A DNA stretch of 54,766 nucleotides from an uncultured Candidatus Saccharibacteria bacterium (GCA_964646765.1 CAZYIA010000001.1:217339-272104); one strand, 5' to 3'; shown: positions 156 to 51,091, numbered from the stretch's first letter. Translations and numbers: made by a program. The notes: generated by a model from the letters alone, not told the origin.

Positions 156-1901
156 TTAAAACACTTCCTTTTTATAGCAAGCATCACAATAAATTATTGT
201 TCCCTTTCCTTTTTGATACGTTGTTTCAAAAACGAGGCCACATGTGCTGGCGCCGTGTTCATGCTCGTTGTTATTTTTGTAGACGCCATTTGTAGAATGT
301 AGACCATCACACATACATGTTTCGTTTCGCAACTTCGTTGGGTTTCGGTAGGCCAAACGTCGATAGTAGCGGCAGTTTGGACACTGGCGCGGTACTGGAA
401 TTTTCATCCGACGATAAAATTCGAGTTCGTCTTTGATAACGCGAAATGCTTTGGTGCAGCCATGAGTACAGCTTCCCGCATGTTCGCAAGTAACGGTTTC
501 TTTTAGAATACTGTCAGTAACATCGGCAATATGTTCTGGTATGCCATCAATTTGAAGCGTTGGTACGTAACTTTTTTCAGCTGGATCCACCCAGTCAAAA
601 CCTGCGCCGGTTGCTTCTTTTTTTGTTTTTGGAAAATATTCTTGGGCAACGGTATCGTTATATGGAAATGGCGAGGAAGAGACTGGAAAATATTCGCCAT
701 ATTCACTTGTTTGCCGCATATGAGCGATAATTTTGTCGCGAAGTTCGATGTATTCCTCTTTTGTATATTGCTTATTTAAAATGCAATACTCTTTATTACT
801 TAAACCACTACAGGCAAAACAGTTTGAACAGTTTTTAAGAAACCAACTGTACGAACACTCGCGCGAATCAGCTGCGCGAACGGTAAACATACACTTGTTT
901 GCCGCAGTAGTTGAAGTTGCTTCGTATACAAGCGAAGAATTTCGGCCGCCAGAATACGCATCCATAGAGTTCGAGTAATCCATTTGATCCCAAATGTATG
1001 CACAGTCTTCGCATTTTTTGATGTTGTAGGAGTTTCGGCAGTTTTTTGAATCTTTAATGAAGTCACCGAAAACATTAACTGAGCGCAAAATAGAAAGGTT
1101 CTTTCGTGGAAACTTTAAAATAAATTCCTCGAACTCTTTGAGTGCCTGCTTTTGGCCAGAATAGGTAGCCAAATTATATTTCATAACTATGGCGTTATAT
1201 TCATCGCGTGAATATTGCTCATTCTTAAAACAATATTGTTTATTGCGAAGATCGGTACACATAAAGCAGTTCACGCAGCCTGAACAGTTATAGAGAAAGA
1301 GTGACTCAGAACATTTTTCGCAGTTGTGTAAAAACTTGCTGTTATTGGACGCGTTCGTGTCAAAGCATTCGTATAAATATTCAGATTGCTCTTTTACCTG
1401 AAAACAATCGGCACAGTAGCTCGATTTGTTACCGCGATACGTATAGAGCATGTTATTCGAGTCGTGTGTGCGTGAGCAGAGGTAGCAATTGGCGCTGCGG
1501 CTCATGTCCTGGTTATAATCACAATTCTGAGAAGCTTGGATATAGAGAGATGGCAGCGGTACTATTTTTAGGAATTCAAGGAATTGAGCGAAGAATGGCT
1601 GGCTAAAATCGAAATCTCGGCCATACTGCATTGGATCAAAAGCATCAGAAAAGTAGTGCTCACGATCGGCAACTTTAAAAGCACATTCTGGACGATAGAT
1701 TGAAATAATATCTTTGCCAGTAATATCACACTTTCGACGATAGAGATTTCGCTCGTTACGGTGCACCATACGACGGATACAGCGGCATTCAGGGCATTGT
1801 GTCGGCGCTGGAACGTCCATTTTTTGGTAAAAATCCAAATCTTCCGGCTCGATAGCAAATGAGCGGCTACAGTTTTTACAAGTTCTAGTTTCTGGGTTCA
1901 T
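156..1901 (-). CDS. Cys-rich zinc-ribbon repeat protein, paralog 1
   Basis: ORF 156..1955; start moved to MNPETRTCKNC (1901) to match the other paralogs. CxxC...CPxCR modules at both ends; NKxYC..N.QY..EEY motif twice. Confidence 0.85.
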   Translation of the reverse strand: MNPETRTCKNCSRSFAIEPEDLDFYQKMDVPAPTQCPECRCIRRMVHRNERNLYRRKCDITGKDIISIYRPECAFKVADREHYFSDAFDPMQYGRDFDFSQPFFAQFLEFLKIVPLPSLYIQASQNCDYNQDMSRSANCYLCSRTHDSNNMLYTYRGNKSSYCADCFQVKEQSEYLYECFDTNASNNSKFLHNCEKCSESLFLYNCSGCVNCFMCTDLRNKQYCFKNEQYSRDEYNAIVMKYNLATYSGQKQALKEFEEFILKFPRKNLSILRSVNVFGDFIKDSKNCRNSYNIKKCEDCAYIWDQMDYSNSMDAYSGGRNSSLVYEATSTTAANKCMFTVRAADSRECSYSWFLKNCSNCFACSGLSNKEYCILNKQYTKEEYIELRDKIIAHMRQTSEYGEYFPVSSSPFPYNDTVAQEYFPKTKKEATGAGFDWVDPAEKSYVPTLQIDGIPEHIADVTDSILKETVTCEHAGSCTHGCTKAFRVIKDELEFYRRMKIPVPRQCPNCRYYRRLAYRNPTKLRNETCMCDGLHSTNGVYKNNNEHEHGASTCGLVFETTYQKGKGTIIYCDACYKKEVF

Positions 1902-2265
1902 AGAATTCAATTTGGTTTCCATCAGGATCAGAAGTAAACGTAAACCGGGCGCCACTTGCCCCAGTGGTTATTGGGCAAAATACTAACCCTTTTTCACTCA
2001 AATTCCTAATTGATTCTTCAATTTCCGGTACCTCAAAAGCAATATGTCGAATACCAAGAATATCAAGATCACTCACATTATTTCCCTTTTTCTTATCTTC
2101 GAATTCCCAAATTTCAACTCTAAAATCATACAGCTTAAGGAAAACTGCTTTACCTTTCAAATCCCGTCGTTCGAAACTTCGCTCAGTTTCAAAACCAAAC
2201 GATTCATAAAAAGCTCGACTTCTTTCTAGATTTGAAACAGTAATTGCAACATGGTGAATCTTCAT
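1885..2265 (-). CDS. VOC/glyoxalase family protein
   Basis: IHHVAITVSNLERSRAFY, HIAFEV and DPDGNQIEF motifs. Confidence 0.9.
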   Translation of the reverse strand: MKIHHVAITVSNLERSRAFYESFGFETERSFERRDLKGKAVFLKLYDFRVEIWEFEDKKKGNNVSDLDILGIRHIAFEVPEIEESIRNLSEKGLVFCPITTGASGARFTFTSDPDGNQIEFYEPRN

Positions 2266-2279
2266 GGCAAAAGTATAGC

Positions 2280-4004
2280 TTACTCAAATTCCGCACGAAA
2301 GCACTCAGCACAGTATGGTTTGTAGCCTTGTTTGGTCTCGTAGGCAGAGAGAATTTCTTTGCCGCACTTAAAGCAAACATCCTGTGTAACTCGAAGATTA
2401 TTTACCATAGCGAAACGATTCATGATGCGCTGGTATGGTGCATCGGTAGGTAGTGCCACATGATTTTGTTTATAAAATTCGATTTCCTGTGGAACAAGTC
2501 GAAACGGTTTACCTGAATGTTCACCAATAATGGCAGTAGTTAAGACATCATTCGTAACATCATTGATGTTGTCAGGAAGTTCGGCGACAGAAATAGTTTT
2601 AATGTTTTTTGTGTCAGTTTCTATATCATCCTGCCAAAATAGATTACGGGCGAGCGCTTCTTCTTTCGTCATAGGATAAATAATGTGTGCAAGAGAGCTA
2701 TTGTACGGATACGGAGCATACTGCATTGGGAAAAATTCACCGTACTCTCCCCTTTTCAGCATTTCAGTTTTTATAGCGTCTACTTTTTCAAAATATTCTT
2801 TTGGTTCGTATACTTTATTAAAAATGGCATAGGAAACATTTTTTAAGCCGATACAGCCGAAAAGGTTTGTGCAGTTATTACATGACATGGTGTATTCAGA
2901 ATCTATAACCTCTTTTCCCGCAAAGGAAAACTTCACATTCGCCGAGTGCAGGCCAACATTTTGACATTCGTAGAGTCGCTCAGAAAATCCAGAAAACGAG
3001 ACGTCCATGAGATCTTTAGTGTGATTTAACATCTGACCATAACGTACATGTTCTGAGTTTTCAGACTGGAAAATCATATACCCGTCTTTTACCTCTTTTA
3101 CATCGTTGCCGGTAACGTTGAGAGACTGATAGATGTGGGTTGCTCGTATTGGGTTTTGCTTCAAGAATTCTAAAAATTTTGTTTTATATTCACGGACTAT
3201 TTTTTGACTACCAAGATCAATTTCACTTCTGCGCTTTTGGTATTCCTCTTTCGTTAGTTGTTCATTGAACCAGCAATATTTTTTATTACGAAGATTAACG
3301 CAACCAAAACAATTTGAGCAATTACGGCAGTCGTAGATGAAGTCGCACTCAATACATTCAACTGAAAAAGATGCGTATGAGCATTTAAAGCAACGGTCGG
3401 TAATAACATTTTCGTATAAATTTTCACCACCGCGTATATAGTACGAATCAACAATATTGCGCGAATCCGTAAAAATTGAGGCGCTATACAAAAGATTTTC
3501 TGATGTCCAAGCACCAAAAACATAGTATGCATTTTTCATGCCGCGACCGTAAAAGGCGTAGTCGCTATTGATACAGTTTGGCCCACGGCGAACACCCGGA
3601 TGCGGAACTTCTTTTAGGAGCTCAAAGTAGTGCTCAAAGAATGACTTCTCTGGACTAACTTCTTTTCCATAATTACGCGGATCCCACGCATCAGAATAAT
3701 ATGTGTCGTAATCATACATTTTCCACGGGATAACTGGTGCGGTGAGTGAAATCATCGTGTCTGTATGCCCCGGAACATCGCATTTGCGACGATACATATG
3801 CGAGTAGTTAGCAAATGCTAAACGACGACGTCTACGGCAGGTTGGGCACAGTTTGGGAGCCGGAACACGAAGCATGTTTAGGAGCTCTATATCTGGAGCA
3901 GTAATTTCAAAATCAGTTTTACAGTCCTCACAAGTTCGAGTGTGAGGAATAAGAGATTTCAAAATCTCATCTAATGCGGTATCAAATTGTGGAGTTTTAG
4001 ACAT
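2280..4004 (-). CDS. Cys-rich zinc-ribbon repeat protein, paralog 2
   Basis: 574 aa; CEDC...CPTCR at the N-terminus; C-terminal CFKC-x17-CAEC. Confidence 0.85.
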   Translation of the reverse strand: MSKTPQFDTALDEILKSLIPHTRTCEDCKTDFEITAPDIELLNMLRVPAPKLCPTCRRRRRLAFANYSHMYRRKCDVPGHTDTMISLTAPVIPWKMYDYDTYYSDAWDPRNYGKEVSPEKSFFEHYFELLKEVPHPGVRRGPNCINSDYAFYGRGMKNAYYVFGAWTSENLLYSASIFTDSRNIVDSYYIRGGENLYENVITDRCFKCSYASFSVECIECDFIYDCRNCSNCFGCVNLRNKKYCWFNEQLTKEEYQKRRSEIDLGSQKIVREYKTKFLEFLKQNPIRATHIYQSLNVTGNDVKEVKDGYMIFQSENSEHVRYGQMLNHTKDLMDVSFSGFSERLYECQNVGLHSANVKFSFAGKEVIDSEYTMSCNNCTNLFGCIGLKNVSYAIFNKVYEPKEYFEKVDAIKTEMLKRGEYGEFFPMQYAPYPYNSSLAHIIYPMTKEEALARNLFWQDDIETDTKNIKTISVAELPDNINDVTNDVLTTAIIGEHSGKPFRLVPQEIEFYKQNHVALPTDAPYQRIMNRFAMVNNLRVTQDVCFKCGKEILSAYETKQGYKPYCAECFRAEFE

Positions 4005-4016
4005 CCTAAGTGTTTG

Positions 4017-5765
4017 TTACATTACCTCTTTCTGATAGCAGGACTCACAGAAAATTGTTTCCGGGCGTTCAGGAGCGTATGAAGTTTGAAATTCATTTTT
4101 ACACTGGCCACTGTGATCATGATTGGATTGACTGCACATACAATTTCTGTGCCAAAGTTTATAGGGAAAGCGGAACGTGAGGCGTTCGTAGAAGCGAGCA
4201 TTTGGTGATTTACGCGGCAGTGGAATTTTGAGTCGCTTATAGAGGGAAAGTTCTTGCGAGGTTATACGAAAAGCGCCTGGCGAATAGTCATTATCTCTGT
4301 CTTCACACTCTATAACTTCATTAATAATAGAATCGGAAATGTCTTGAATAGCATCAGGGATTTTTGAAAGTGGCATAGTAACCTGATATTGGCTTTTTTC
4401 TTTTGTTCGCCAGGTAAAACCTTTTGCTTTTGCGCCAGCTTCAGTGAGTGGATAGTAATCATGCGCCGGTGTTTCGTTATATGCAAAAGGAGAAATTTCT
4501 GAAGGAAAAAATTCACCAAATCTGTATATGCGGCCAAGGGCATCTTGGTACGGCATGACATTCATGTGCTCAATAATTTTTGGCACCAAGACCTCGTATT
4601 CTTCTTTGGTGTATTGCTTATTGAAAATACAATACTGCTTATTCCGAAGAGCGACGCAACCAAAAAGGTTGCTACTTTGATGGCAAAAGAGCGAGTAGTA
4701 TATGTTTGAACATGTCCAAACCATGGCAGACATAAACATTCGTTGAGCATTCTCCCCTGCTGACATAGTTTCGTAACTGGTTTCGTAGTTCACTCCACCC
4801 GCAAAAAGATCGTAGCAATCACTTACATTCGAGAAGGCATAACCGGTAAATTTACACTGCTCCATTTTGTTAGCAATATCAAAACATTCATGGCAATTTC
4901 GAGCATTACGGATATGGTTTCCAGTTACATTTTCTGACTGTAGGATATCGGCAAACTTTTTCGGGAACGTGCGAGCAAAGTCATAAAATTTTGCCAGATT
5001 TTTTTGTAGTGTTTGATGTGAACCGTCACGATATTCTTTTATTTTTTGGTCGTACTCTTCTTTAGAATATTGAACATTAAAAATACAGTGCGATTTATTA
5101 CGGAGCTCAACACAACCAAAGCAATCTTGGCAGTTATAGCAGTCCCACATGAGATGTGAATCGATACAATTATGCGAGAAATACGTGTAGCTTGATTGAT
5201 AACAACCCTTTGATTTATAGCCCATGTAACACGATTCCATATTCTCGCATCCTTCTTGGTCGCAGGAATTCTTGGTTCGCATAGTTTGATGAAGATATGA
5301 AGAGTCTTCATTCATGTCACTAGCGAATGCTAAATAGCAGTTTTTACATTGATAGGTAAAGTTACAAAAATCACTGTTTGCATTCTGAAGATTAGTTGCA
5401 TGTGGTTGCGGCACGACAGCAATTAGTTCCTTCAACTGCTCAAAAAATGGCCGAGAAAAATCGTAGTCTTTCCCGTACTCTAAGCTATCCCAAGCATCAC
5501 TCCACCAATATTCTTGTTCATATACGGGGAATGGCACGTCGGAATGGTAGTTCGCAAGCAGCATTTTCTCACCATCCTTAGTAATGCATGGCCGCTTATA
5601 CAAATTGTGCTCATTACGCCAAACTAAGCGGCGAATAAGCCGACATTCAGGACAAAAGGTAGGCGGTGGAACTTTTATTTTTTCGTAAAACAAAAAATCC
5701 TCTGGTTCGATAGTGAATTCCAGTTTACAACTCTGACAATTTTTTGTTTCGGAATTTTTTATCAT
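4017..5765 (-). CDS. Cys-rich zinc-ribbon repeat protein, paralog 3
   Basis: 582 aa; same architecture as the other paralogs; start overlaps the stop of paralog 4 (TAATG). Confidence 0.85.
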   Translation of the reverse strand: MIKNSETKNCQSCKLEFTIEPEDFLFYEKIKVPPPTFCPECRLIRRLVWRNEHNLYKRPCITKDGEKMLLANYHSDVPFPVYEQEYWWSDAWDSLEYGKDYDFSRPFFEQLKELIAVVPQPHATNLQNANSDFCNFTYQCKNCYLAFASDMNEDSSYLHQTMRTKNSCDQEGCENMESCYMGYKSKGCYQSSYTYFSHNCIDSHLMWDCYNCQDCFGCVELRNKSHCIFNVQYSKEEYDQKIKEYRDGSHQTLQKNLAKFYDFARTFPKKFADILQSENVTGNHIRNARNCHECFDIANKMEQCKFTGYAFSNVSDCYDLFAGGVNYETSYETMSAGENAQRMFMSAMVWTCSNIYYSLFCHQSSNLFGCVALRNKQYCIFNKQYTKEEYEVLVPKIIEHMNVMPYQDALGRIYRFGEFFPSEISPFAYNETPAHDYYPLTEAGAKAKGFTWRTKEKSQYQVTMPLSKIPDAIQDISDSIINEVIECEDRDNDYSPGAFRITSQELSLYKRLKIPLPRKSPNARFYERLTFRFPYKLWHRNCMCSQSNHDHSGQCKNEFQTSYAPERPETIFCESCYQKEVM

Positions 5766-7519
5766 TAGTTAACTTCCTTTTGATAACAACTCTCACAATA
5801 CACTATTTCTGGGCGATTTGGTGCATATGAGGTTTCGAATTCATTTAGACAATTTCCACGATGATCATGATTTTCTTTTGTACACATACAGGTGCGATGC
5901 CAGAGTTCAAGAGGATTACGACGTAATATTCGAGCATGGTGACGGCAGTGAAAACAGCGTCGAGGAATTGGAATTTTGAGGATACGATAAAAATTGAGTT
6001 CGTTTGGAATAATTTTATAGTTACGCTTACAGTTAATACAAGCCAGAATCTCGTTAACCATCGTATCAGAGATATCGTTGATGCTTTCTGGAATTTTGTC
6101 TTGAGAAAGGGTTCCTTTCCCTATTGTTTGCTGTACATTATCCTGCCATTTAAAGTGGTGAGTTAGTGCCTCTTCACGCGAAAGTGGAATCTGATCGAGG
6201 GCTACTGTTTCGTTATAACCAAACACTGAAAGTTCTGCCGGAAAGAATTCACCATAACGATACACACACCCATTTTTGTCTTTGTACGGCATCGTATTCA
6301 TATGCTCAATAATTTTCGGCATCAGCGCCTCATACTCTTCTTTAGTGTATTGTTTGTTTAAAATACAGTACTGACTTTTTCGAAGCGCTGCGCAACCAAA
6401 AATATGTTTGCAGTCATGGCAGTGCTGGGTATAGCGAATGTCCTGGCTTTTAACAGAAAAAATTCCGAAGAAATTATGATAGGAGTGATCAGCAACAATA
6501 TTTTCATAACATTCGGAGAGTTCTCCACTCATAGTAATATCGTAGGAATCTTTTGGGCTTGCGCCGTAGTCGTAGTAGCGGCAATTCTCGGCGTTATGAA
6601 TACCAAAAGAGTCTTTAACGTTCTTGCAGTTGGTTAATACATCTCCCGTGGAGTAAATACTCTGAAGTATGTACGCATAGCGACGTGGGTATGTGAGGAT
6701 AAATTCGTCGAATTCCTTTTTAGCTCGTTCTACGCCAACAAATGTGTCGAGTTTATAATCAGCTAGAATTTTTTCGTACTCTTCCTTTGAATACTGCACA
6801 TTTTTGAAGCAGTACTTTTTATTACGAAGCCCAGCACACATAAAACAATCGGTGCACCCACGGCAGTCATACATAAATTGCGAATCAATACAGGAAATAC
6901 AAAATTCTCCGTACTTTAGTTGGTAACATTCCGCGCAACTAATACATTCGTAGATACGTTGGTTATGTTCAAGAATATTGAGTGAGTCGCACACATCCTT
7001 GATTTGTTTACCTTCTGGCCCAGCAACTAAAAAACTATACATGACATTTTCAGTACGCCAAGAAGAAAAAAGCATGTAGCAGTTTTTTGAAAACCAGGTG
7101 TCGTGTGTATACTCGCAATTTACACTCGCAATACCATTGTCGTTTACGATGGCAATGTGTGGTACCTTTTGAAGCATTTCACGATACTGGGTAAAAAAAG
7201 GTTTTGAGAAGTCGTAGTCGACACCATAGTCTTTTGGATCCCACTTATCACTCCACCAACATTTATTACAGTACACGGTTATGTCAGATTCTGGTGAATA
7301 CAATGTCACCACTCCTTTACCACAGAGGCCACAGGTTCGATTGTATAACGAGAGATTATTGCGCCATGAAAGACGTCGCTGACTGCGACATTTAGGACAA
7401 AAAGTGGGTTCTGGTACGCCAATTTTTTGGTAGAAACCAATATCATCTGGCTCAATGATAAAAGTTACAGCACAGTTTTGGCACTGTTTGGACTCACTTC
7501 CCATTGTCTGATTATCCAC
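5765..7519 (-). CDS. Cys-rich zinc-ribbon repeat protein, paralog 4
   Basis: 584 aa; all four zinc-ribbon sub-motifs intact, including N-terminal CGLC-x17-CNKC. Confidence 0.85.
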   Translation of the reverse strand: MDNQTMGSESKQCQNCAVTFIIEPDDIGFYQKIGVPEPTFCPKCRSQRRLSWRNNLSLYNRTCGLCGKGVVTLYSPESDITVYCNKCWWSDKWDPKDYGVDYDFSKPFFTQYREMLQKVPHIAIVNDNGIASVNCEYTHDTWFSKNCYMLFSSWRTENVMYSFLVAGPEGKQIKDVCDSLNILEHNQRIYECISCAECYQLKYGEFCISCIDSQFMYDCRGCTDCFMCAGLRNKKYCFKNVQYSKEEYEKILADYKLDTFVGVERAKKEFDEFILTYPRRYAYILQSIYSTGDVLTNCKNVKDSFGIHNAENCRYYDYGASPKDSYDITMSGELSECYENIVADHSYHNFFGIFSVKSQDIRYTQHCHDCKHIFGCAALRKSQYCILNKQYTKEEYEALMPKIIEHMNTMPYKDKNGCVYRYGEFFPAELSVFGYNETVALDQIPLSREEALTHHFKWQDNVQQTIGKGTLSQDKIPESINDISDTMVNEILACINCKRNYKIIPNELNFYRILKIPIPRRCFHCRHHARILRRNPLELWHRTCMCTKENHDHRGNCLNEFETSYAPNRPEIVYCESCYQKEVN

Positions 7520-7553
7520 TTATTTAAGCCTTTTTCAAAATCAATAAGGCTTT

Positions 7554-7895
7554 TTATAGCTTTGGATCGTTGTGGTATCGATCGTATTCACCAAAGAGAT
7601 AGTTTTTCATCCAGAGTTGGTAATCAACATTTTTGATATTGATGTCTGAGGTGCCAATCATCGGAACCTTATAGGAATGCAATTTTTTAATATACTCAAT
7701 TAAGCGTTCGAGTTTATTTTCATCAGTAGTGAATATCACCATGTACTGGATAACATCCTCAGGAAAGCCTTCCCAAGTATAAATTGAGCGGATAGGCCAA
7801 AAGTCGGCACAAGCGGCATAGCGCTCGCGAATGATGTTATTTGCAAGAATAACGGCCTCGCTCTCGTCTTTAACTGTCGTATATACAAACAACAT
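7554..7895 (-). CDS. cutA: Divalent-cation tolerance protein CutA
   Basis: VYTT..EA..LA..II.ER.AAC, SIYTWEG and HSYKVP.I motifs; 113 aa. Confidence 0.85.
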   Translation of the reverse strand: MLFVYTTVKDESEAVILANNIIRERYAACADFWPIRSIYTWEGFPEDVIQYMVIFTTDENKLERLIEYIKKLHSYKVPMIGTSDINIKNVDYQLWMKNYLFGEYDRYHNDPKL

Positions 7896-8172
7896 ACAGG
7901 TAGTAATAACTTACATGCCTAGTTTATACCACAGTATGTCAATAGCAAGGCTACGGAACACATCCTGTGGATTGTCAAATGTAACTATTGCCGCAACGGT
8001 AAAAGCTAGTTTAATTAGACGCTGTGTATTCTTAACCTCAAAAACTAGACAAAGTTAAAAATCATAGCATAATGAGCGCAAGTAAGAATTCTCTTTAATA
8101 ACGATTCTAAGAGGACTGTTGGATTTTTTCTGTTGCTCAAAAGGCACTAGGAATAATCCAACACAACACTCT

Positions 8173-8874
8173 ATGGAATTAAAAATTTTTAACCTAAATT
8201 GCTGGCTGCTTCCCCCACCATTTTCGGTACAGAACAAAGCCCGCTTACAAAGCATTATTAAACTGATACAGGAATATAATCCTGATGTCATTACACTTCA
8301 AGAGGTTTGGCTGCAAGCATATGTAGCGATTCTTCAGAACGAATTACGTACGTATAATTTTGTGGCTTCCTATGAACCATTTTTTAATCGTGGAGGTTTA
8401 GTAACTGGCGTGCGTAAAAATGTTACCGCCAAAATATTTCCTCATACGTTCCCTCAAATGAAGGAATACTCAACCACGGAAAAGTACGGAAGCAAAGGCT
8501 ACCACGAAATTACTGTTTCTAATCTCTCCCTGATAAATACGCATTTATACGCACCAACCAATACCTTTGAAGAAAGTATTACTTCCTATCAATTTAGTCT
8601 GCTGTGCGGTTTCTTCTATAAGAAAAATGGAATACTGGCCGGGGACTTAAATATGGAACAGGAAAAATTACACGGGCAAGGAATTTTCCGCTTCTTCAAA
8701 ACCGAAAGTACTCTTTCGAAAGATAATTCGTACGCTAACTGGGGTTTTAATAAAACTTTGTTTAGTAAACAAATTGATTATGTATTACCAACCGAGAATA
8801 TTCAGGTAGGTGTTGAAGTGCTTCGAGATGAAGTTTCTGACCACTACCCACTAATAGGTTCTGTTGTTAATTAA
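8173..8874 (+). CDS. Endonuclease/exonuclease/phosphatase (EEP) family hydrolase
   Basis: FNLN, DVITLQEVW, NTHL, GDLN, IDYV and SDHYP motifs; start moved from 8119 to MELKIFNLN. Confidence 0.85.
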   Translation: MELKIFNLNCWLLPPPFSVQNKARLQSIIKLIQEYNPDVITLQEVWLQAYVAILQNELRTYNFVASYEPFFNRGGLVTGVRKNVTAKIFPHTFPQMKEYSTTEKYGSKGYHEITVSNLSLINTHLYAPTNTFEESITSYQFSLLCGFFYKKNGILAGDLNMEQEKLHGQGIFRFFKTESTLSKDNSYANWGFNKTLFSKQIDYVLPTENIQVGVEVLRDEVSDHYPLIGSVVN

Positions 8875-8923
8875 CTACGTTAAACACGTCTAACTGGCTC
8901 TGCATGTATTTGTAGGGCTAGTT

Positions 8924-9475
8924 TTATTTTTGAGTTATCCAAAATTGCAGTTTCGGAACACCTTTTTCAGGATTAGCTATTTTCCCGCTCAAAATACCGC
9001 CGTTCGCCAGAATTACTCCTTTTGACGGTAGGTTTGTTTCGTCGCAAGTAATGAAGACTTTTTTAATGCCCAGATTTTTTGCCTTCTGTAGCGCAAGACG
9101 GAGCATTTCTTTACCGTAACCCTTGCCGCGCTCTTCCGGGATAAGCGAGTAGCCAATATGTCCACCAACGGTACGGAGGTTGTTATTTAAACGATGACGA
9201 ATACTTACTCTGCCAATAGCCTTGTTGCCGCGTATAACCCAATATAAAGTTGAAGGAACTTTACCTTTTTCAAGATTAATTCCCTTTCGCTGTTCATCAG
9301 CAATTTTCTTATAGAGCGGAAAATCTTTTAAGGCAAAAAATACTTGCAGTTTGTCAGGTCCTGCAGCAACTATTCCCCCTTTCTTGTCTTTGGCAAAACT
9401 TCGCAATGCACGAAGATATGAAGCCGCATACTTTTTTGTAGGCAGCACAAGAGCTATCTTTCCTCGCTGGTTCAT
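8924..9475 (-). CDS. GNAT family N-acetyltransferase (COG3981-like)
   Basis: GGHIGYSLIPEERGKGYG acetyl-CoA motif; ITCDETNLPS..VI..NGG. Confidence 0.85.
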   Translation of the reverse strand: MNQRGKIALVLPTKKYAASYLRALRSFAKDKKGGIVAAGPDKLQVFFALKDFPLYKKIADEQRKGINLEKGKVPSTLYWVIRGNKAIGRVSIRHRLNNNLRTVGGHIGYSLIPEERGKGYGKEMLRLALQKAKNLGIKKVFITCDETNLPSKGVILANGGILSGKIANPEKGVPKLQFWITQK

Positions 9476-9479
9476 TCTC

Positions 9480-9905
9480 CTACTTTAATACACCAATTTT
9501 GAATGTTGCAAGTTCGTTTTCAGGACGAGCTTGGCCGCCATGCTGACCATTAAACGCGGTAGTTCCATCAATACCACAAAGACTTAGGATTGCCTCAGAA
9601 CCTCCCGGGTGACGAGAAATCCAGCTCGTGACGTCATAGACGTTACCATTGATAGCCGTCCAGCAACTACTTTGACTATTATGAGTTCCAACTTCGGCTA
9701 GTGAATATGATTTCTCTGCTGATCCTGTTGTGGTTGATGTTGTATCGTTTGTTGAGCCAGTTGTTTGTACCGCAGCAGAAGTTGTATTTTCAGGGGTTAC
9801 TGGAATTGGCGTATTCGAGTTAGAGTTACGCTCCGCAATAAAAATAGCTGAGAGGATAATGATGATACCGACGAGAATTCCGATTGATAAAACGTTTTTA
9901 TTCAT
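9480..9905 (-). CDS. Membrane-anchored cytochrome b5-like heme-binding protein
   Basis: N-terminal TM helix, Thr-rich linker, then HN...SCW..ING.VYDVT.W...HPGG and a second His (GQHG). Confidence 0.9.
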   Translation of the reverse strand: MNKNVLSIGILVGIIIILSAIFIAERNSNSNTPIPVTPENTTSAAVQTTGSTNDTTSTTTGSAEKSYSLAEVGTHNSQSSCWTAINGNVYDVTSWISRHPGGSEAILSLCGIDGTTAFNGQHGGQARPENELATFKIGVLK

Positions 9906-9995
9906 ACTAACGAAGTTACCTGATAAGAATGAAGGATTAATGAAGGCATGCGCCTTGGTTCCCAGTGTAGCAGTTAAGGAAAATTTTGAAAGCTG

Positions 9996-11741
9996 TTAGC
10001 TCACCTCCTTCTGGTAGCATGATTCGCAGTAAATTCGTTCTGGTCGCTCTGGAGCATAAGAAGTTTCAAATTCATTTAGACACTTTCCCTGATGGTTATG
10101 CTTCGATTCCTCGCACATGCACGAGCGATGCCAAAGCTTCATTGGATTTCGTTCCTTTAGACGATTATAGTGGCGGCAGTTGTAGCAAAATTGCGGAAGA
10201 GGTACATCCAGTTTTTTATACAGTTCTATTTCTTGAGGAACTAATCGGAATGCAGTTGTGCAGCCAGTAACCGAATTTCCTTTTCCCCGACATTCGATAA
10301 CTTCATTGAGTATTGAAGCTGGTATATCTCGAATTGTTTCTGGAATAGAATCGGTTGGCATTGTAATTTGATAGTTTCTTTCACTCGGTTCACGCCAGCC
10401 AAAACCACGTTCGAGAGCTTCTTCTTTTGTGAGTGGATAATATTCTTGAGCGATAGTTTCGTTATAGAAAAAGGGTGAAGTATCATGAGGAAAAAATTCG
10501 CCATAAGAAAAAATTCTGCCGACACTATCTATATACGGCATAGTTTTCATATGCTCTATGATTTTTGGAATCAGTATTTCATACTCCTCTTTTGAATATT
10601 GCCTGTTCAAAATACAATATTCTTTATTACGAAGTCCATAGCAGCCAAAAAGATGGGATGAGCCATGACAATTTATAGAGTACCTCACATCAAACGAACC
10701 ATAGACAATAGAACTAAAGAATGTAGAGGAACTCATATTATCAACTACTTCGTATAGTAATTCCCCACCCGACATACCAACGCCAGGGCCAGCATCGTAC
10801 GAATCTTTCATTCGTAGTCCCCAAAAACAGTTTTTAAGGTCCTCAGCTTCTTGAAAGTCGAAGGTATTTTTTGATCGAGTTACCCCAACAAGGTTATCTC
10901 CGGTGGAACCTTCAGCTTTAATATTGTTTGCATATTTATAAAACTGAGTTGAGCAAAACTTTTCAAATTCCTTTTGAAATTTCTCAATTCCAGCTCGTGT
11001 ATGGAGCGCATACTCTTTTTTCTTTGCCTCGTATTCTTCTTTTGTATACTGAACGTTAAAAATACGCCGTGAAGCATTCCGGAGGTTTATACATCCAATG
11101 CATTCGGTACAATTTTTACAGTTAGAAAGAAACCGTGAATCACTGCATTCTTGCGAGTTAAATGAAAAAGCCGTTCGGTAGCATTTTGTACAGTTAACTA
11201 GTTCGTAGGAAAGTTCATTTTGAAAGCCAATGTATAAATCTCCCGACTGACGGTTCTCAACAACACGATTACTAAAGAGAGTATCTTCATTATGTTCAGA
11301 TCCAGAAACCATATGGCAGGCTTTATCTCCTTCTGAAACATTACAGTAGGTGCAATTCACCAGATTAGTTACCGAAAGACCAACTTGAGGCACACTTCGA
11401 TATAGTTCTTTAAACTGAACAAAAAATGGCTTTGAGAAATCATAAACATGACCATAAGAGAACGGATCCCAGGAGTCACTCCACCAGGAGCGGTCATCAT
11501 AAGCGGTAACTTTTGACTCAGGGTGAAAAATGGAAATCATCTGCTCGTTTTCATGGCCTGGAGCAGCATTTAATCTCTTATACAATGTTCGTTCGTTACG
11601 AAACATCATTCGTCGCTGTGATCGGCAATCGAAACAAAAAGTAGGTGGTGGAACTTTTATTTTATTGTAGAAATCAAAATCTTCAGGATCAATAGTAAAT
11701 TCCTTTTTACAGCTCTGACATTGTCGTGTGCTGCTTTCCAT
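9996..11741 (-). CDS. Cys-rich zinc-ribbon repeat protein, paralog 5
   Basis: 581 aa; same architecture; starts 5 nt after the rplI stop. Confidence 0.85.
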   Translation of the reverse strand: MESSTRQCQSCKKEFTIDPEDFDFYNKIKVPPPTFCFDCRSQRRMMFRNERTLYKRLNAAPGHENEQMISIFHPESKVTAYDDRSWWSDSWDPFSYGHVYDFSKPFFVQFKELYRSVPQVGLSVTNLVNCTYCNVSEGDKACHMVSGSEHNEDTLFSNRVVENRQSGDLYIGFQNELSYELVNCTKCYRTAFSFNSQECSDSRFLSNCKNCTECIGCINLRNASRRIFNVQYTKEEYEAKKKEYALHTRAGIEKFQKEFEKFCSTQFYKYANNIKAEGSTGDNLVGVTRSKNTFDFQEAEDLKNCFWGLRMKDSYDAGPGVGMSGGELLYEVVDNMSSSTFFSSIVYGSFDVRYSINCHGSSHLFGCYGLRNKEYCILNRQYSKEEYEILIPKIIEHMKTMPYIDSVGRIFSYGEFFPHDTSPFFYNETIAQEYYPLTKEEALERGFGWREPSERNYQITMPTDSIPETIRDIPASILNEVIECRGKGNSVTGCTTAFRLVPQEIELYKKLDVPLPQFCYNCRHYNRLKERNPMKLWHRSCMCEESKHNHQGKCLNEFETSYAPERPERIYCESCYQKEVS

Positions 11742-15436: not shown

Positions 15437-16498
15437 TTACCCTAATGAGACAATTTCTTCCCACGGTAAACCTTTTTTACCAAAGTGACCGTACGCAGCG
15501 GTTTGTTTAAAGATCGGTAGGCGGAGGCCGAGTCGTTCGATAATTGCTTGCGGGCGAAAATCAAAATGTTTAGTAACAATATCGTGAAGATTAATTCCCT
15601 CTTCGTTGTACGCAGTTACTTGTACTGGTTCTGCACGCCCAATGGCATAGGAAACTGAAACGAGTACTTGCTTACCATATCCTGCTGCTACTAAATTTTT
15701 TGCTGCAAAACGCGCCATATAGGCAGCAGAGCGATCAACTTTTGTGGCGTCTTTTCCAGAAAATGCGCCACCGCCATGGGGTGCTAATCCGCCATATGTA
15801 TCAACCATGATCTTTCGGCCAGTTAAGCCTGCGTCAGAAGCAAATCCACCAGTAACAAATGAACCTGTTGGATTTATAAAAATTGTTTCTGGCATCTCAT
15901 CACCTACTACTGGAGCGATAATTTTTTCTCGAATTGTTTGATTAATTTCTAGCTCAGAAATTTCTGGCTTATGTTGTGCTGAAACTACAATTGTAGAAAC
16001 TTTTCCATTCTCAATAGTTACTTGGGTTTTTCCGTCCGGCATAAGCCATGAAATTGCACCACTACGACGCGCTTCTTCGAGCTTACGTGCAAGCGCATGA
16101 GCAAATACTACTCCTTTCGGTAAAAATTCTTTTGTTTCATTCGTGGCAAAACCATACATGATACCCTGGTCGCCAGCGCCGCCAGTATCTACCCCTTGAG
16201 CAATTTCCGGTGCTTGTGTAGCAACACGAGTTATAACTTCGAGAGGATCACTGTAGCCAATTTCTTCGTACACTTTTTTACCTAATGCAGCATAATCAAC
16301 TGAGGCAGTACTAGTAACTTCTCCACCAATAACTAACAAACCATGACTACCAAAAGCTTCAACAGCTACGCGAGCCTTTGAATCTTTTTCTAAAAGAGCA
16401 TCTAAAATAGTATCTGAAATTTGATCGCAGACTTTATCTGGATGACCCGAGGTAACACTTTCAACTGTATAAGTGTCTTTAATAGTTTGATTAAACAT
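15437..16498 (-). CDS. metK: S-adenosylmethionine synthetase
   Basis: ESVTSGHPDKVCDQISD, GAGDQG, DAGLTGRKI.VDTYGG, HGGGAFSGKD.TKVDRS; start probably 16498 because the ATG at 16513 lies inside the leader hairpin. Confidence 0.97.
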   Translation of the reverse strand: MFNQTIKDTYTVESVTSGHPDKVCDQISDTILDALLEKDSKARVAVEAFGSHGLLVIGGEVTSTASVDYAALGKKVYEEIGYSDPLEVITRVATQAPEIAQGVDTGGAGDQGIMYGFATNETKEFLPKGVVFAHALARKLEEARRSGAISWLMPDGKTQVTIENGKVSTIVVSAQHKPEISELEINQTIREKIIAPVVGDEMPETIFINPTGSFVTGGFASDAGLTGRKIMVDTYGGLAPHGGGAFSGKDATKVDRSAAYMARFAAKNLVAAGYGKQVLVSVSYAIGRAEPVQVTAYNEEGINLHDIVTKHFDFRPQAIIERLGLRLPIFKQTAAYGHFGKKGLPWEEIVSLG

Positions 16499-16531
16499 AA
16501 AAATAACTCCCATAAGGGAGTTTACATAAAG

Positions 16532-16623
16532 GTATCCTTCCCATTCGGGCTGGGATTAGCACCTTGCATTTGCAGGTTGCCGACGGGTCATTGAGCCAGA
16601 ACTCTCGCCGCACTCTTGATAAT
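16532..16623 (-). promoter_or_regulatory. SAM-I (S-box) riboswitch
   Basis: Minus strand TTATCAAGAG..GGCGAGAGTTCTGGCTCAATGACCC.TCGGCAACC-hairpin-AGGTGCTAAT.CCAG-hairpin-GGATA matches the SAM-I consensus; lies directly upstream of metK. Confidence 0.88.
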
Positions 16624-16658
16624 TGGCTTTAAAGCCAATAAAAAAGTACCATAAAAAA

Positions 16659-20790: not shown

Positions 20791-22143
20791 TTAAGCACTA
20801 GTTGTGAATGCTTGCTGTGCAGAAATTGAGGTGTTTCCCATTGCATCCTTTGCTTCAACTACAAAGAAGTATAAGGTATTTGCTGAAAGGTTGCCGAGAG
20901 TAATCTGATGATCAGTACTCATGGTACTATCTGATACAACAGATGAACTACCGAGAATAACTGATCCGATTCCGTAGTACACTTTTACGCTTGCATTCTC
21001 ATCAGTGCGGAAGGTAATCACAGCGCCATTCTTGCTTATTTGATTAATCGCAAGCTGACTAACGATTGGTGCTCGTACATCACGACTTGTAGTGGTGAAT
21101 GTTCCATCACTCGAGATCGCTACACGACCACTTACATCACGGGCTGTAATTTTATAGTGATAGGTAGTGTTAGCAGAAAGTCCAGTGAGAGTAACACTGC
21201 GAGAAGTTACTCGTTCATCACGAGAAACTGATGTCCCATAACTAGTTGAAGTACCGTAGTCTACCCGTGATGCTGTAGCAACATTTGTCTGCCAAGAGAG
21301 TACTGCACTGTTGTTGTCGATATTAGTAACACTAACATTAGAGATTGAAACTGTGGGAGCAGAAACTAAGGTAGTGAACGTTGCATCCGCTGAACGACTT
21401 ACATTACCATTGCCATCTCGGGCAACAATCTGATAATGGTAGGTTGTTCCTGCTGTGAGGTTTGAGAGAATGATTGAGTGATTATTTGCTTTTTGGTCAA
21501 GACGGGATTCTAGGCCATATGACGTGTTAGCACCAAAGAGAACTGATGCCTGAGCTGATTCGTTTGTTGTAAAGTTAATCTTTGCACTACTTTCCGTAAT
21601 AGCTTCTACAGAAATATTTGTAATGACTGGAGCAACTGTATCTGGAGCATTTGTGGTAAACGTGGCGTCAGACGACGTGGTTCGATTACCCCAAAAATCA
21701 CGAGCTACAATTTGGTAGTGGTAGGTAGTATTTGGTTGTAGATTTCGAATCACAATAGAGTGACCTTTACCAAACGATGGACTCCACTGAGAGGTTGTAT
21801 ATGAAGAGCTTGATCCATAGAGAACTTCCGATGTTGCATTTTCATTGGTATTCCAGGAAATTTTTACACTCGTATCACTTACGTTCGAAACGGCTACAGC
21901 ACTAATAGTAGGAGCAATAGTATCTGGTGAACAATTTTTATTTACTTTATGGCTAAAGATGCCAAAGAAAAATCCTAAACCCCTTGGATAATGACAGACT
22001 TGAGATGAGTTTCGATTTTTATTTCCTTGGTTGTTATCATTTTCATGATCTTTCGCAAAAGCTGTCATTCCACCTACGGAAATGAGGAGGAGGAAAGCTA
22101 AAGCGAGACTGGTAATTTTTTTCATATTTTTTGAAAGATACAT
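20791..22143 (-). CDS. Secreted protein with four fibronectin type III (Pur_ac_phosph_N-like) repeats
   Basis: Signal peptide (start probably 22125), then four repeats of ..A.I.W.TNE.A...V.YG....Y....H...L.NL...TTY.Y...A.D..GN...S....FTT. Confidence 0.85.
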   Translation of the reverse strand: MYLSKNMKKITSLALAFLLLISVGGMTAFAKDHENDNNQGNKNRNSSQVCHYPRGLGFFFGIFSHKVNKNCSPDTIAPTISAVAVSNVSDTSVKISWNTNENATSEVLYGSSSSYTTSQWSPSFGKGHSIVIRNLQPNTTYHYQIVARDFWGNRTTSSDATFTTNAPDTVAPVITNISVEAITESSAKINFTTNESAQASVLFGANTSYGLESRLDQKANNHSIILSNLTAGTTYHYQIVARDGNGNVSRSADATFTTLVSAPTVSISNVSVTNIDNNSAVLSWQTNVATASRVDYGTSTSYGTSVSRDERVTSRSVTLTGLSANTTYHYKITARDVSGRVAISSDGTFTTTSRDVRAPIVSQLAINQISKNGAVITFRTDENASVKVYYGIGSVILGSSSVVSDSTMSTDHQITLGNLSANTLYFFVVEAKDAMGNTSISAQQAFTTSA

Positions 22144-25123: not shown

Positions 25124-25175
25124 AGTCAGCAGATTGTAACATACTGAGGTAACGCAAAAATAAAATATTTGCACG

Positions 25176-50184: not shown

Positions 50185-51090
50185 TCATGCTTCTACGGCT
50201 TTTTGGGCAAGCGCGAGTGCTCCTTCCTTACTTCCCGCTACCGCCATAAAACGGCCGTTATGACAAAAAATAGCATCAGGCACACCAGAAACCTTAGCTA
50301 ATTCGCCGCTACGGAGACCCGCCCAAGATTCTGGTAATGGCTTGCGCAGTTCAAAAGTATTTGGTCCTTTAGCTACTGCTTCAACTTTAAAGCCACCAGT
50401 AGGACGCTCATTAATTGCATAGAGTGGCTCAGGAAGCGATGTTAATGTCCCTTGGAATGGATAATTAGTTGCAAGCACCACAATGCGTTTGTCTTTAGCA
50501 GCATCATAAGCTTTACGCACTTCAGTAACTGCAAGTGCTCGGTCATTTGCCTGAATTATTTCTCGAGAAACAATTTCCCGAGCTAATGGTACTAATTTTT
50601 TCAAAAATGGAGTATCGAAGTCTTGCTCTTCCTTCCAGGTTGGTCGAAAAGCATACAAAGTTTCTTGCAACCGGAAAGGGCGAATTCCCTGTTTTAAATC
50701 GAGGAGCGAATAACCGTTGTCGTCAGCATCAATACACTGAATAAGTGTTGCATCAACATCTGCTGCGGCTTCAGCACTACCAGCAAGTATTTCTCCGTAG
50801 GTATTCCAGGTAAGGCCAGCGGCTGCAAAAGGTATTTTGTTAACGCGCACCCCAGCACCACCAGGCTGATGGTGGTCGAAACGCTTAGTCGTAACATCGT
50901 GAACACCGCCAACGTCCACAACGTAATCAGCTTTTTTAATTACATTCTCATCACGTGTGCGGACAATGGTATACGATTCTCCTTCTCGGTCGAGCGTAAG
51001 GGTTATAATCGCGCAGGCAAAAATATCATCAGCATGGAACTTGCCGTCATGCGTTACAATCATTTTTGGTTTTTTGAATATTGAGAACAT
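50185..51090 (-). CDS. MYG1 family (DHH-like) exonuclease
   Basis: THDGKFHADD, RTRD, DVGG, FDHHQ, FCH...F motifs; start 51090 or 51105. Confidence 0.93.
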   Translation of the reverse strand: MFSIFKKPKMIVTHDGKFHADDIFACAIITLTLDREGESYTIVRTRDENVIKKADYVVDVGGVHDVTTKRFDHHQPGGAGVRVNKIPFAAAGLTWNTYGEILAGSAEAAADVDATLIQCIDADDNGYSLLDLKQGIRPFRLQETLYAFRPTWKEEQDFDTPFLKKLVPLAREIVSREIIQANDRALAVTEVRKAYDAAKDKRIVVLATNYPFQGTLTSLPEPLYAINERPTGGFKVEAVAKGPNTFELRKPLPESWAGLRSGELAKVSGVPDAIFCHNGRFMAVAGSKEGALALAQKAVEA

Positions 51091-51091
51091 A

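Follow-up and report, generated by a model that had tools for sequence, protein, structure and literature searches.

An ancient Patescibacteria-specific family of zinc-finger and beta-solenoid paralogs with a putative link to orphan VirD4/TrwB-like ATPases

The five large genes at the start of this stretch of DNA (the window, 54.8 kb in full), together with a sixth copy beyond its left edge, belong to an ancient family with many paralogs that is confined to the ultra-small bacteria of the Patescibacteria (CPR). Each protein is cytoplasmic, has a length of about 580 aa and carries a pair of treble-clef zinc fingers at either end, the N- and C-terminal pairs being homologous to each other. Two homologous, cysteine-rich beta-solenoid modules lie between these pairs. 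This architecture of zinc pair, two solenoid modules and zinc pair, as predicted from sequence and structural modelling, is newly worked out here. We tentatively suggest that each paralog acts as a ligand-specific recognition subunit of orphan VirD4/TrwB-like ATPases, a putative role that we regard as possible.

An initial annotation had proposed five full-length paralogs, and all five are recovered as intact open reading frames of 574–584 aa, matched over their full length by the family HMM at 605–883 bits. The ORF call places every one on the minus strand, a detail absent from that annotation.

156..1901, minus strand: Paralog 1, 581 aa, identical to public protein P0001; family HMM 760 bits
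2280..4004, minus strand: Paralog 2, 574 aa; family HMM 605 bits
4017..5765, minus strand: Paralog 3, 582 aa; family HMM 840 bits
5765..7519, minus strand: Paralog 4, 584 aa from the GTG at 7519; family HMM 883 bits
9996..11741, minus strand: Paralog 5, 581 aa; family HMM 845 bits

For Paralog 4 the public gene call is shorter, 579 aa from an ATG at 7504, and a GTG at 1955 is a possible alternative upstream start for Paralog 1. Pairwise identity among the five is 30–46%, with Paralog 2 the most divergent copy (30–32% to the others) and carrying an N-terminal extension of 17 aa. Paralog 5 lies directly downstream of rplI, CutA1 and cytochrome-b5-like genes are located inside the array, and the sixth paralog (566 aa, 700 bits) sits ~2.8 kb past the window's left edge, beyond an M42 peptidase and enolase. 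The scaffold motifs quoted in the initial annotation correspond to conserved columns in both 5- and 60-sequence alignments, where they read WWSD.WDP..YG.DYDFS.PFF, LRNK.YCI.N.QY.KEEY (twice) and YGEFFP...SPF.YNET.A. By eye and in the AF2 model, the N-termini show no hydrophobic leader and enter the first zinc knuckle already at residue 8–25, in agreement with the earlier statement that a signal peptide is lacking.

Even in their best-conserved segments the paralogs share only 60–77% DNA identity, which rules out both a recent duplication and a collapsed or expanded assembly. The identical gene order was also assembled independently from two sequencing runs. In multi-copy loci, the closest relative of 152 of the 155 copies lies in another genome and not in the copy's own neighbourhood, showing that the paralog lineages are older than the divergence of their carrier genomes. 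Orthologues retain the complete architecture, and Paralog 1 differs from its orthologue mostly at third codon positions (protein 84% identical, DNA about 74%); from such sequence comparisons, strong purifying selection appears to act on each lineage. Paralog 4 belongs to the best-conserved orthogroup, with 60–74% identity across genomes. The description of these genes as old, intact and retained duplicates holds on each of these points.

Surveying the family and its neighbourhoods, a check put forward with the initial annotation, yields 2,629 word-indexed matches, 4,904 clusters at the 50% identity level (with few exceptions full length, at 545–612 aa) and the ATPase linkage described below. 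Named records come without exception from Patescibacteria, mostly Paceibacteria/Minisyncoccia. Tandem arrays of 2–9 copies are the rule, within a range of one to at least nine copies per locus. The curated libraries Pfam, NCBIfam, PADLOC and PHROGs hold no accepted match to the paralogs, and the PDB none by sequence or by fold. Public sources label relatives only as hypothetical proteins, as the initial annotation had stated, apart from one IMG record named 'Zn ribbon nucleic-acid-binding protein'. Tandem, strongly diverged paralogs have a precedent in the VirB2 pilin arrays of Patescibacteria (about 25% identity), but those pilins are small, secreted and thought to vary for host adaptation (PMC12102498), whereas the family proteins are large and cytoplasmic, and their paralog lineages are conserved between genomes.

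Paralog 4 is the only copy with four complete zinc-finger sites, arranged in two terminal modules.

7235..7519, minus strand: Paralog 4 N-terminal zinc module, aa 1–95, two fingers
5765..6067, minus strand: Paralog 4 C-terminal zinc module, aa 485–584, homologous to the N-terminal module

The homology of the terminal modules is evident by profile alignment (hhalign 99.2%, E=2e-19). The N-terminal module of Paralog 4 runs from a zf_Tbcl-like CxxC-x24-CxxC through a basic helix, CRxQRRLxWRNE, to a CxxC-x17-CxxC finger. Fingers 1 and 3 have the x24 spacing (C8xxC11-x24-C36xxC39 and C489xxC492-x24-C517xxC520) and fingers 2 and 4 the x17 spacing (C58xxC61-x17-C79xxC82 and C552-x17-C570xxC573). Across the family neither the last finger (C..C-x17-CxxC) nor the extreme C-terminus (..VYCExCYQxEVx) varies, and three Cys4 sites are invariant in six of six copies, namely those of finger 1, of the last finger and of the core CxxCxxCxxC. 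Sites 2 and 3 are degenerate in Paralogs 2 and 3; in Paralog 1 the core CxxCxxCxxC is intact alongside sites 1, 3 and 4, but site 2 is missing three of its four cysteines. The same x17 and x24 spacings occur in PF13451 (zf_Tbcl), PF23477 (zf_Tbcl_2) and TIGR04272, and in AF2-predicted shape the fingers resemble the zf_Tbcl treble clef, in which a hairpin leads into a helix. PF13451 is matched weakly by 22 of 60 members (E<=0.1; best E 1.3e-4) and PF23477 by 8 of 60, and the window proteins stay below the gathering cut-offs (best 15.4 bits against 27 for Pfam, and 13 against 36 for TIGR04272). Whereas zf_Tbcl-type proteins are single-domain and 40–100 aa long, the family fuses four fingers to a 390-aa core, and several paralogs have lost ligands of sites 2 and 3. 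LIM/CRP double zinc fingers were considered and rejected: no significant match spans both fingers, and the PDB gives sequence hits only at E=0.1–6, confined to a 40-residue stretch in the last finger. Small M. mazei CxxC-x17-CxxC proteins bind Zn by ICP-MS (PMC12704099), and by this analogy and their CxxC spacing the paralogs probably bind zinc.

Four treble-clef fingers, with basic helices of the CRxQRRLxWRNE type following each pair, would suit free-standing nucleic-acid-binding factors such as regulators, RNA/DNA sensors or chromosome organisers, for which any adjacency to an ATPase would be incidental. The initial annotation read the proteins in much this way, as putative sensors or binders of nucleic acid, metal or host-derived ligands, and the IMG name points towards nucleic acid. 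However, the paralogs match no known DNA- or RNA-binding family in sequence libraries, the PDB or Foldseek, and they are net acidic (K+R 65–75 vs D+E 74–80).

The core of Paralog 4 is divided between two modules.

6770..7147, minus strand: Paralog 4 beta-solenoid module A, about aa 125–250, ending in C..CxxCxxCxxC-x2-LRNKxYCxxNxQYSKEEY and then a helix
6320..6682, minus strand: Paralog 4 beta-solenoid module B, about aa 280–400, ending in LFGCxxLRxxQYCILNKQYTKEEY and then a helix

The two halves are homologous (hhalign 99.8%, E=3.8e-28). The full-length AF2 model (pLDDT 88, pTM 0.87) predicts ends that resemble treble clefs and a core of short, periodic strands, with lower confidence in module A (pLDDT 66–77) and in a core-only model (73). 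Central repeats had been said to differ strongly, which is true of the first parts of each solenoid half but not of the last coils and cap, which are among the most conserved stretches. The hexad-like periodicity of the core cysteines (spacings 3, 6, 12) recalls left-handed beta-helix proteins, and Foldseek ranks hexapeptide left-handed beta-helices (gamma-carbonic anhydrase, GlmU, LpxA/LpxD) highest for the core, although these matches are very weak (E from 0.035, TM <=0.22, rmsd about 9–18 Å). No superposition reaches TM>0.5, the best match being 1v3w (E=0.035, TMt 0.18, rmsd 12.5 Å); the core-only model has no Foldseek match below E=5, and Hexapep HMMs find nothing in 60 members at E<=0.1 or, even at E<=1, in the window's five paralogs. 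Moreover, the inward-facing pattern of the core is i/i+3, as against i/i+4 in the hexapeptide helix, and the acyl-CoA and His3-Zn site residues of hexapeptide-repeat enzymes are absent. In the phage/MGE (CxxCxx)n proteins of phrog_15341, the repeat ends in a cap, C.GC..[LI].N..[YF].I.N.Q[YF][ST]..EY, as it does in the family, whose cap region aligns to phage Cys-repeat proteins (hhalign 94–96%). phrog_15341 matches the paralogs faintly (Paralog 4 E=0.024, Paralog 3 E=0.22) and the phage proteins at E down to 8e-19. The latter are 90–190 aa of almost pure CxxC repeats without zinc-finger ends, whereas the family module is duplicated and embedded, with most repeat cysteines replaced.

With 23–39 cysteines per protein (4–7% of residues) and an invariant CxxCxxCxxC run in the core, the cysteines themselves could be the functional element, in a Zn or iron-sulphur carrier or buffer, or in a redox-switched holdase working with DnaK/DnaJ. 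dnaK occurs in 14 of 79 family loci and dnaJ in 11 of 79; at one locus (L037) an ATPase and dnaJ are 8 bp apart, a second (L092) likewise has the order Fam-ATPase-dnaJ, and the CutA1 and cytochrome-b5-like genes of the window's array would also fit. We nevertheless judge a metal or redox role improbable: many cysteines beyond the three invariant sites are not conserved, the dnaK/J linkage is confined to a related subset of genomes, and a buffer would not require five to nine individually conserved paralog lineages. In module B, two of the four core cysteines are replaced by Ser and Leu, which likewise counts against a metal or redox role, and the CxxCxxCxxC run may therefore be a buried cysteine ladder and not a metal site. 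Outside the zinc sites, two conserved linker regions contain invariant or near-invariant acidic and polar residues (SD91xWD94, D101-Y-D103, G-E424-FFP and Y-N436-E), which, with the strong purifying selection, could mark the active site of an enzyme whose substrate differs by paralog. We give an enzymatic function a slim chance, as sequence libraries, the PDB and Foldseek reveal no similarity to a catalytic fold and the conserved residues are mostly aromatic, fitting an interdomain packing interface.

A soluble VirD4/TrwB-like (T4CP/HerA-class) ATPase lies near family genes in 29 of 79 family-centred loci, a sample of phylogenetically related loci, and is usually adjacent to a family gene, mostly at <100 bp and on the same strand. 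Reciprocally, of 80 metagenome loci centred on an ATPase, at least 30 contain the exact family motif (17 of 29 among those with full flanks), where chance predicts about 3e-4 matches, and 29 of the 30 positive loci have it on the ATPase strand. The linked ATPases are of the TrwB/TraG-D_C/HerA type, with undamaged Walker A and B motifs and matches to PF10412, PF12696 and PF02534; some contain a PF23477 CxxC-x17-CxxC finger (E=1.5e-11) together with a long disordered tail. A recurring cassette reads ATPase(long, with finger)-Fam-...-Fam-ATPase(short)-dnaJ. The nearest relatives of Paralog 3 in other genomes are members of ATPase-linked arrays (L032, L036), and Paralog 5 is 47% identical to the L092 family gene, which is followed directly by a T4CP-like ATPase and dnaJ. 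The suggestion of a possibly uncharacterised system gains support because orphan T4CP-like ATPases adjoin family genes in other genomes. In the window itself no such ATPase is encoded, either in its 54.8 kb or in the 10 kb past its left edge.

T4CPs select type IV secretion substrates and operate with accessory proteins that choose cargo, but the family proteins are unlike any known relaxosome or adaptor component. The linked ATPases share domain families and Walker motifs with type IV coupling proteins (VirD4/TrwB/TraD), yet they have no N-terminal membrane anchor, and only 148 of the 5,713 VirD4-like T4CPs across 2,918 Patescibacteria genomes are near virB4 (PMC12102498). For these orphan T4CPs, according to the same authors, exaptation to another function cannot be ruled out (PMC12102498). 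The paralogs could instead be cargo themselves, effectors selected through the invariant C-terminus (..CYQxEVx) and exported to the host cell, or could form an anti-phage or conflict system with the ATPase; conflict genes typically form tandem diversified arrays, the solenoid cap is common to small phage proteins, and the ATPases match PADLOC mad8/HerA models. These matches are generic P-loop similarity, however, and PADLOC returns nothing for the five paralogs at E<=1. Phage collections contain essentially no full-length members, the family is set in housekeeping operons with one fixed architecture throughout the class, and from genome to genome the paralogs are orthologous and not fast-turning-over. 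Together with the missing anchor and the scarcity of virB4, this makes an effector or conflict role very unlikely.

Elsewhere, the best-conserved orthogroup occupies a slot between scpAB/vanY and mraY-ftsW-murG, in the order scpB-vanY-Fam-mraY-ftsW-murG and immediately upstream of mraY-ftsW-murG with gaps of 15–115 bp, with no ATPase nearby. This slot, the modelled rigid beta-solenoid core with its pseudo-twofold symmetry, and the conservation of each ancient lineage would fit a structural or hetero-oligomeric scaffold of the division and cell-envelope machinery, in which paralogs assemble with one another like other ancient paralog sets. Such a scaffold seems quite unlikely to us: a fixed stoichiometry is disfavoured because copies per locus vary so widely, and Foldseek finds no resemblance to cytoskeletal beta-helices such as bactofilin or MinC. 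The position beside scpA-scpB, and the lack of an adjacent ATPase for most copies, including all in the window, would again suit free-standing nucleic-acid-binding factors, but the reciprocal ATPase linkage of 38–59% is far above chance, and we consider that reading rather unlikely. The absence of an ATPase from the window, from the 10 kb to its left and from the housekeeping slots, and the roughly 40–60% of loci without linkage, also speak against an adaptor role, and gene order in these compact genomes can stay conserved without functional coupling.

For the recognition-subunit role that we tentatively prefer, the rigid twin solenoid would fix the geometry of the two zinc-finger pairs, and the pairs so held would clasp a macromolecule, with nucleic acid, an unfolded protein or a partner protein as the likeliest ligand. 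Paralog-specific recognition would come from the variable coils at the start of each solenoid half, and the paralogs would act as interchangeable recognition or adaptor subunits of the soluble hexameric VirD4/TrwB-like ATPases encoded alongside them in many Paceibacteria. The initial interpretation is partly supported overall, and the linkage to orphan ATPases provides a new lead that was invisible from the sequence of the window alone.

The ORF listing of the window contains five long minus-strand frames of 574–584 aa, two of them with alternative starts, which make up the array together with interspersed genes:

156–1901, minus strand, paralog 1 (alternative GTG start at 1955)
1885–2265, minus strand, glyoxalase-family gene, whose overlap with the 5' end of paralog 1 is 17 nt (ATG at 1901) or 71 nt (GTG at 1955)
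2280–4004, minus strand, paralog 2
4017–5765, minus strand, paralog 3
5765–7519, minus strand, paralog 4 (alternative ATG start at 7504, used by the public gene call)
9480–9905, minus strand, protein with a cytochrome-b5-like heme/steroid-binding domain, a hydrophobic N-terminal segment and a linker rich in Thr and Ser
9996–11741, minus strand, paralog 5

The five proteins align end to end at pairwise identities of 30–46%, and each matches the family HMM over its full length with 605–883 bits, confirming the five-member array described in the initial annotation; the scaffold motifs quoted there are borne out as conserved alignment columns. Because the most similar stretches of the paralogs are only 60–77% identical in DNA and the gene order is identical in independent assemblies of two sequencing runs, the array is neither an assembly artefact, a possibility raised at the outset, nor the product of a recent duplication or amplification. 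The array is cut short by the window edge. In the source-genome locus that includes the left flank (L080:14526–16226), a sixth paralog of 566 aa (700 bits) lies ~2.8 kb past the left edge. It is preceded by an M42 peptidase and enolase and followed by a 223-aa protein without a Pfam match and then iPGM.

Three of the paralog genes are nearly contiguous: paralogs 3 and 4 share 1 nt at 5765, and 12 nt separate paralogs 2 and 3 (4004–4017). The overlap of the glyoxalase-family gene with paralog 1 suggests translational coupling. From the S41 peptidase gene (ending at 13486) to position 156, the genes share one strand, with a single exception from the EEP family. The genes between the paralogs (glyoxalase, CutA1, EEP nuclease/phosphatase, GNAT and the cytochrome-b5-like protein) have no common theme; the cytochrome-b5-like gene adjoins those for GNAT, the EEP nuclease/phosphatase (opposite strand) and CutA1. 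A promoter/terminator scan yielded no usable signal: its counts did not exceed the shuffled expectation. The window as a whole is an ordinary Paceibacteria-type chromosome segment, carrying rplI, the S41 protease, rsmI, metK with its SAM riboswitch, queA, an F-type ATP synthase operon, RF, gatB, obg, and glycolysis and pentose-phosphate genes. Further features are:

16529–16625, minus strand, SAM-I riboswitch (54 bits), immediately upstream of metK (15437–16513)
20791–22143, minus strand, repeated purple-acid-phosphatase-N/FN3-domain protein
23453–25174, minus strand, PIF1-like helicase with a C-terminal HTH_40 domain
50185–51105, minus strand, MYG1/UPF0160 exonuclease-family protein

The purple-acid-phosphatase-N/FN3 repeat protein and the MYG1/UPF0160 protein are unexpected in so small a genome. 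Near the PIF1-like helicase, the 24–30 kb segment has a raised G+C content (0.43–0.46) and coincides with the ATP synthase operon.

An AF2 model built with a 60-sequence alignment is a confident single body (pLDDT 88, pTM 0.87), with lower values of 66–77 for residues 120–240. Conservation analysis over 185 full-length copies, combined with profile–profile comparisons, establishes an architecture of four elements. The N-terminal zinc module comprises a CxxC-x24-CxxC finger, a basic helix (CRxQRRLxWRNE) and a CxxC-x17-CxxC finger. Two mutually homologous solenoid modules, A and B, of ~115 aa each (hhalign 99.8%, E = 3.8e-28) consist of short periodic strands and end in C.GC..LRNK.YCI.N.QY.KEEY plus a helix, a cap that is visible in the DNA as a 94-nt repeat occurring eight times in the window. 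Two linker regions are aromatic and acidic (WWSDxWDPxxYGxDYDFSxPFF and YGEFFPxELSPFxYNETxAQEYFPL). The C-terminal zinc module is homologous to the N-terminal one (99.2%, E = 2e-19) and closes with an invariant ..VYCExCYQxEVx. The protein may represent a new fold combination, in which four treble-clef fingers are set on a duplicated cysteine-rich solenoid.

The fingers weakly resemble PF13451 (zf_Tbcl) and PF23477/TIGR04272, and small archaeal proteins with the x17 motif bind zinc (PMC12704099). Across all six copies in the genome, the Cys4 sites of finger 1, the module A core (CxxCxxCxxC) and the last finger are invariant; finger 2 is complete in paralog 4 only, and finger 3 in paralogs 1, 4 and 5 only. 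Since the module B core has Ser and Leu at two of its four Cys positions, the core cysteines may be a buried ladder instead of a metal-binding site. From sequence we infer that the family proteins bind zinc, and we take them to be cytoplasmic. Rivals to the adaptor reading given below would make them free-standing nucleic-acid binders or enzymes, or assign them metal, redox or chaperone roles.

Foldseek comparison of the full model with PDB and BFVD returned nothing significant. The best PDB matches were very weak and all left-handed beta-helices (gamma-carbonic anhydrase, GlmU and LpxA/D; E 0.035–1.4, TM ≤0.22). The Foldseek search with a less confident, core-only AF2 model (pLDDT 73) was empty, and querying PDB by sequence with the family-wide profile, the N-terminal module or half B of the solenoid likewise produced no match. 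The most fitting description of the modelled core is a beta-solenoid without a close solved relative.

A stand-alone relative of the solenoid exists in phages. The sole IMG/VR match is a 108-kb viral contig (L087) with three small proteins of 108–174 aa, composed almost purely of (CxxCxx)n repeats:

6373–6897, small repeat protein
7899–8225, small repeat protein
10642–11070, small repeat protein

These share an N-terminal MEKTELLKLGRTGFLK motif and end in ..CFGCSNIKNSKFMIKNIQFTETEY, the same cap as that of the family solenoid. They match phrog_15341, which has no assigned function, with E-values down to 8e-19, and the ends of both solenoid modules align with them at 94–96% probability; paralogs 3 and 4 show faint matches to the same PHROG. 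From this shared cap, the Patescibacteria core looks, at the sequence level, like a duplicated, diverged cysteine-repeat module that also circulates in phages. Relatives of the small proteins are few and unnamed, one of them bearing a precomputed PF27784 label, and the repeat region of the contig contains long spurious ORFs on the opposite strand. A phage tblastn search with one small repeat protein gave no match, probably owing to low-complexity masking. By Foldseek, phage 'zinc-ribbon domain' proteins weakly match the ends of the family protein. A mobile-element or phage origin of the family itself was considered and rejected: one phage record matched, over a zinc-finger-sized stretch only, the single IMG/VR contig bears small repeat relatives only, and full-length members were not found in phage collections.

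This is a real and very large family, specific to its lineage. The profile search gave 2,629 word-indexed hits; searched exhaustively, the family amounts to 4,904 cluster representatives (50% identity) at E ≤1e-3 (2,222 at E ≤1e-30), nearly all of 545–612 aa and matching end to end. Named genomes include Nomura-, Staskawicz-, Lipton-, Giovannoni-, Jorgensen- and Sungbacteria, Paceibacterota/Minisyncoccia and one Peregrinibacteria. Records labelled Burkholderiales (L052) and Bacteroidales (L057) probably reflect mis-binning; both contigs bear typical family arrays despite their non-Patescibacteria bin labels. The initial annotation described similar CPR proteins as hypothetical proteins only, and the records agree, being named 'hypothetical protein' or 'uncharacterized protein' with the sole exception of an IMG 'Zn ribbon nucleic-acid-binding protein'. 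None of the five paralogs scored above threshold against Pfam, NCBIfam, PADLOC or PHROGs; neither these collections nor PDB gave a confident full-length match to a characterised housekeeping family, and the full-text literature searched holds no description of the family. It is a family without a characterised relative or a curated model.

The HMM and neighbourhood survey that had been proposed was run on 79 loci from GTDB species representatives, whose six-frame ORFs were scanned with the family HMM, and yielded both copy numbers and a candidate partner ATPase. Each locus has 1–9 copies within ~20 kb, nearly always on a single strand, with the highest numbers at L069 (nine), L045 (eight), and L009 and L036 (seven each). 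In the multi-copy loci, the closest relative of 152 of 155 copies is in a different genome, and best identities have a median of 57% between genomes versus 44% within a locus. Paralog 4, for example, is 64–66% identical to copies in three other loci (L001–L003) versus 31–44% to its own neighbours. The duplications therefore happened before these genomes diverged, and every lineage has since persisted, which upholds the view of old, intact, retained duplicates. Paralog 1 and an orthologue are 84% identical in protein and ~74% in DNA, with mismatches mostly at third codon positions; by rough reckoning from this one DNA alignment, read by eye, dS is saturated and dN/dS well below 0.2. The family consists of ancient paralogs that appear to be under purifying selection, as judged from that alignment. 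A few copies are split into two adjacent ORFs (L036:5786–7533, L060:1742–3532, L074:8215–10002, L075:5691–7405 and probably L086:7358–9080), either frameshifted pseudogenes or assembly errors; individual copies are therefore occasionally decayed or lost. Paceibacteria genomes are ~0.5–1 Mb and have shed most non-essential genes. Despite this reduction, 5–9 or more copies of a 1.75-kb gene are kept as separately conserved lineages, which points to an undescribed lineage-specific core function.

Clustering of all non-family ORFs from the 79 loci revealed one standout candidate partner, a cluster of 47 ORFs in 30 loci (including L033, L034, L037, L055 and L092), lying a median of 94 bp away. Their products are soluble P-loop ATPases matching TrwB_AAD_bind, TraG-D_C, T4SS-DNA_transf and HerA/DUF87, with invariant Walker A (GKSGxGK[ST]) and Walker B (VDEF) motifs; a search for an N-terminal membrane anchor in them found none. 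Short (~500 aa) and long (650–930 aa) forms occur, some of the latter with a significant C-terminal PF23477 finger (CxxC-x17-CxxC; E = 1.5e-11) and a long disordered tail rich in Lys, Glu and Pro. They appear to be the 'orphan T4CPs' for which exaptation for another function is regarded as possible (PMC12102498).

With an ATPase HMM, 29 of the 79 family loci proved to encode the ATPase, mostly on the strand of a family gene and <100 bp away from it. Reciprocally, 80 ATPase-centred JGI metagenome loci were searched for the exact back-translated motif QY[ST]KEEY, which detects 63 of the 79 family-centred loci. Some 3e-4 hits would be expected by chance. Of the 80 ATPase loci, 30 contained the motif, as did 17 of the 29 whose 6-kb flanks were complete; 29 of the 30 had it on the ATPase strand. 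The linkage is statistically strong and incomplete, and makes the family a candidate partner of the orphan T4CP-like ATPases. A recurrent cassette reads ATPase(long)-Fam-...-Fam-ATPase(short)-dnaJ, sometimes with dnaK first (L037, L092). Orphan-type ATPases often lie between dnaK and dnaJ; the L092 ORF between two family genes proved to be a long ATPase rather than DnaK. Window paralogs 2, 3 and 5 have their closest relatives in ATPase-linked arrays, yet neither the window itself nor the 10 kb past its left edge shows a T4CP-like ATPase. A second conserved slot is occupied by the paralog 4 orthogroup, scpA-scpB-(Fam)-vanY-Fam-mraY-ftsW-murG; another rival reading casts the proteins as division or envelope scaffolds. 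That they are exported effectors or a defence system has also been weighed. Defence and mobile-element readings are the least likely, because the genes sit in housekeeping operons, orthologues are stable between genomes, PADLOC gave no match and phage collections held no full-length members.

The initial interpretation, of a diversified set of sensors or binders and possibly an uncharacterised system, is thus supported in part, by the ancient paralogs and by the gene linkage. Our best guess, a tentative one, is that the family proteins are ligand-specific recognition or adaptor subunits for the T4CP-like ATPases. More speculatively, and in our view improbably as a complete picture, the family and these orphan soluble VirD4/TrwB-like ATPases could together form an unrecognised, Patescibacteria-specific cytoplasmic machine. 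In such a machine a hexameric translocase would be steered by 5–10 interchangeable multi-zinc-finger beta-solenoid adaptors, each picking a different nucleic-acid or protein cargo, such as scavenged DNA/RNA or material exchanged with the host. For the orphan T4CP-like ATPases, of which each Patescibacteria genome has about two and to which published work has assigned no firm role, the linkage is a first handle; the lead to function is now concrete and testable. The family, which spans ~4,900 clusters at 50% identity and has a model in neither Pfam nor NCBIfam, is among the larger annotation blind spots for these organisms, and if the machine reading is true, 1–2% of the coding capacity of reduced genomes would be devoted to a system without counterpart in studied bacteria.
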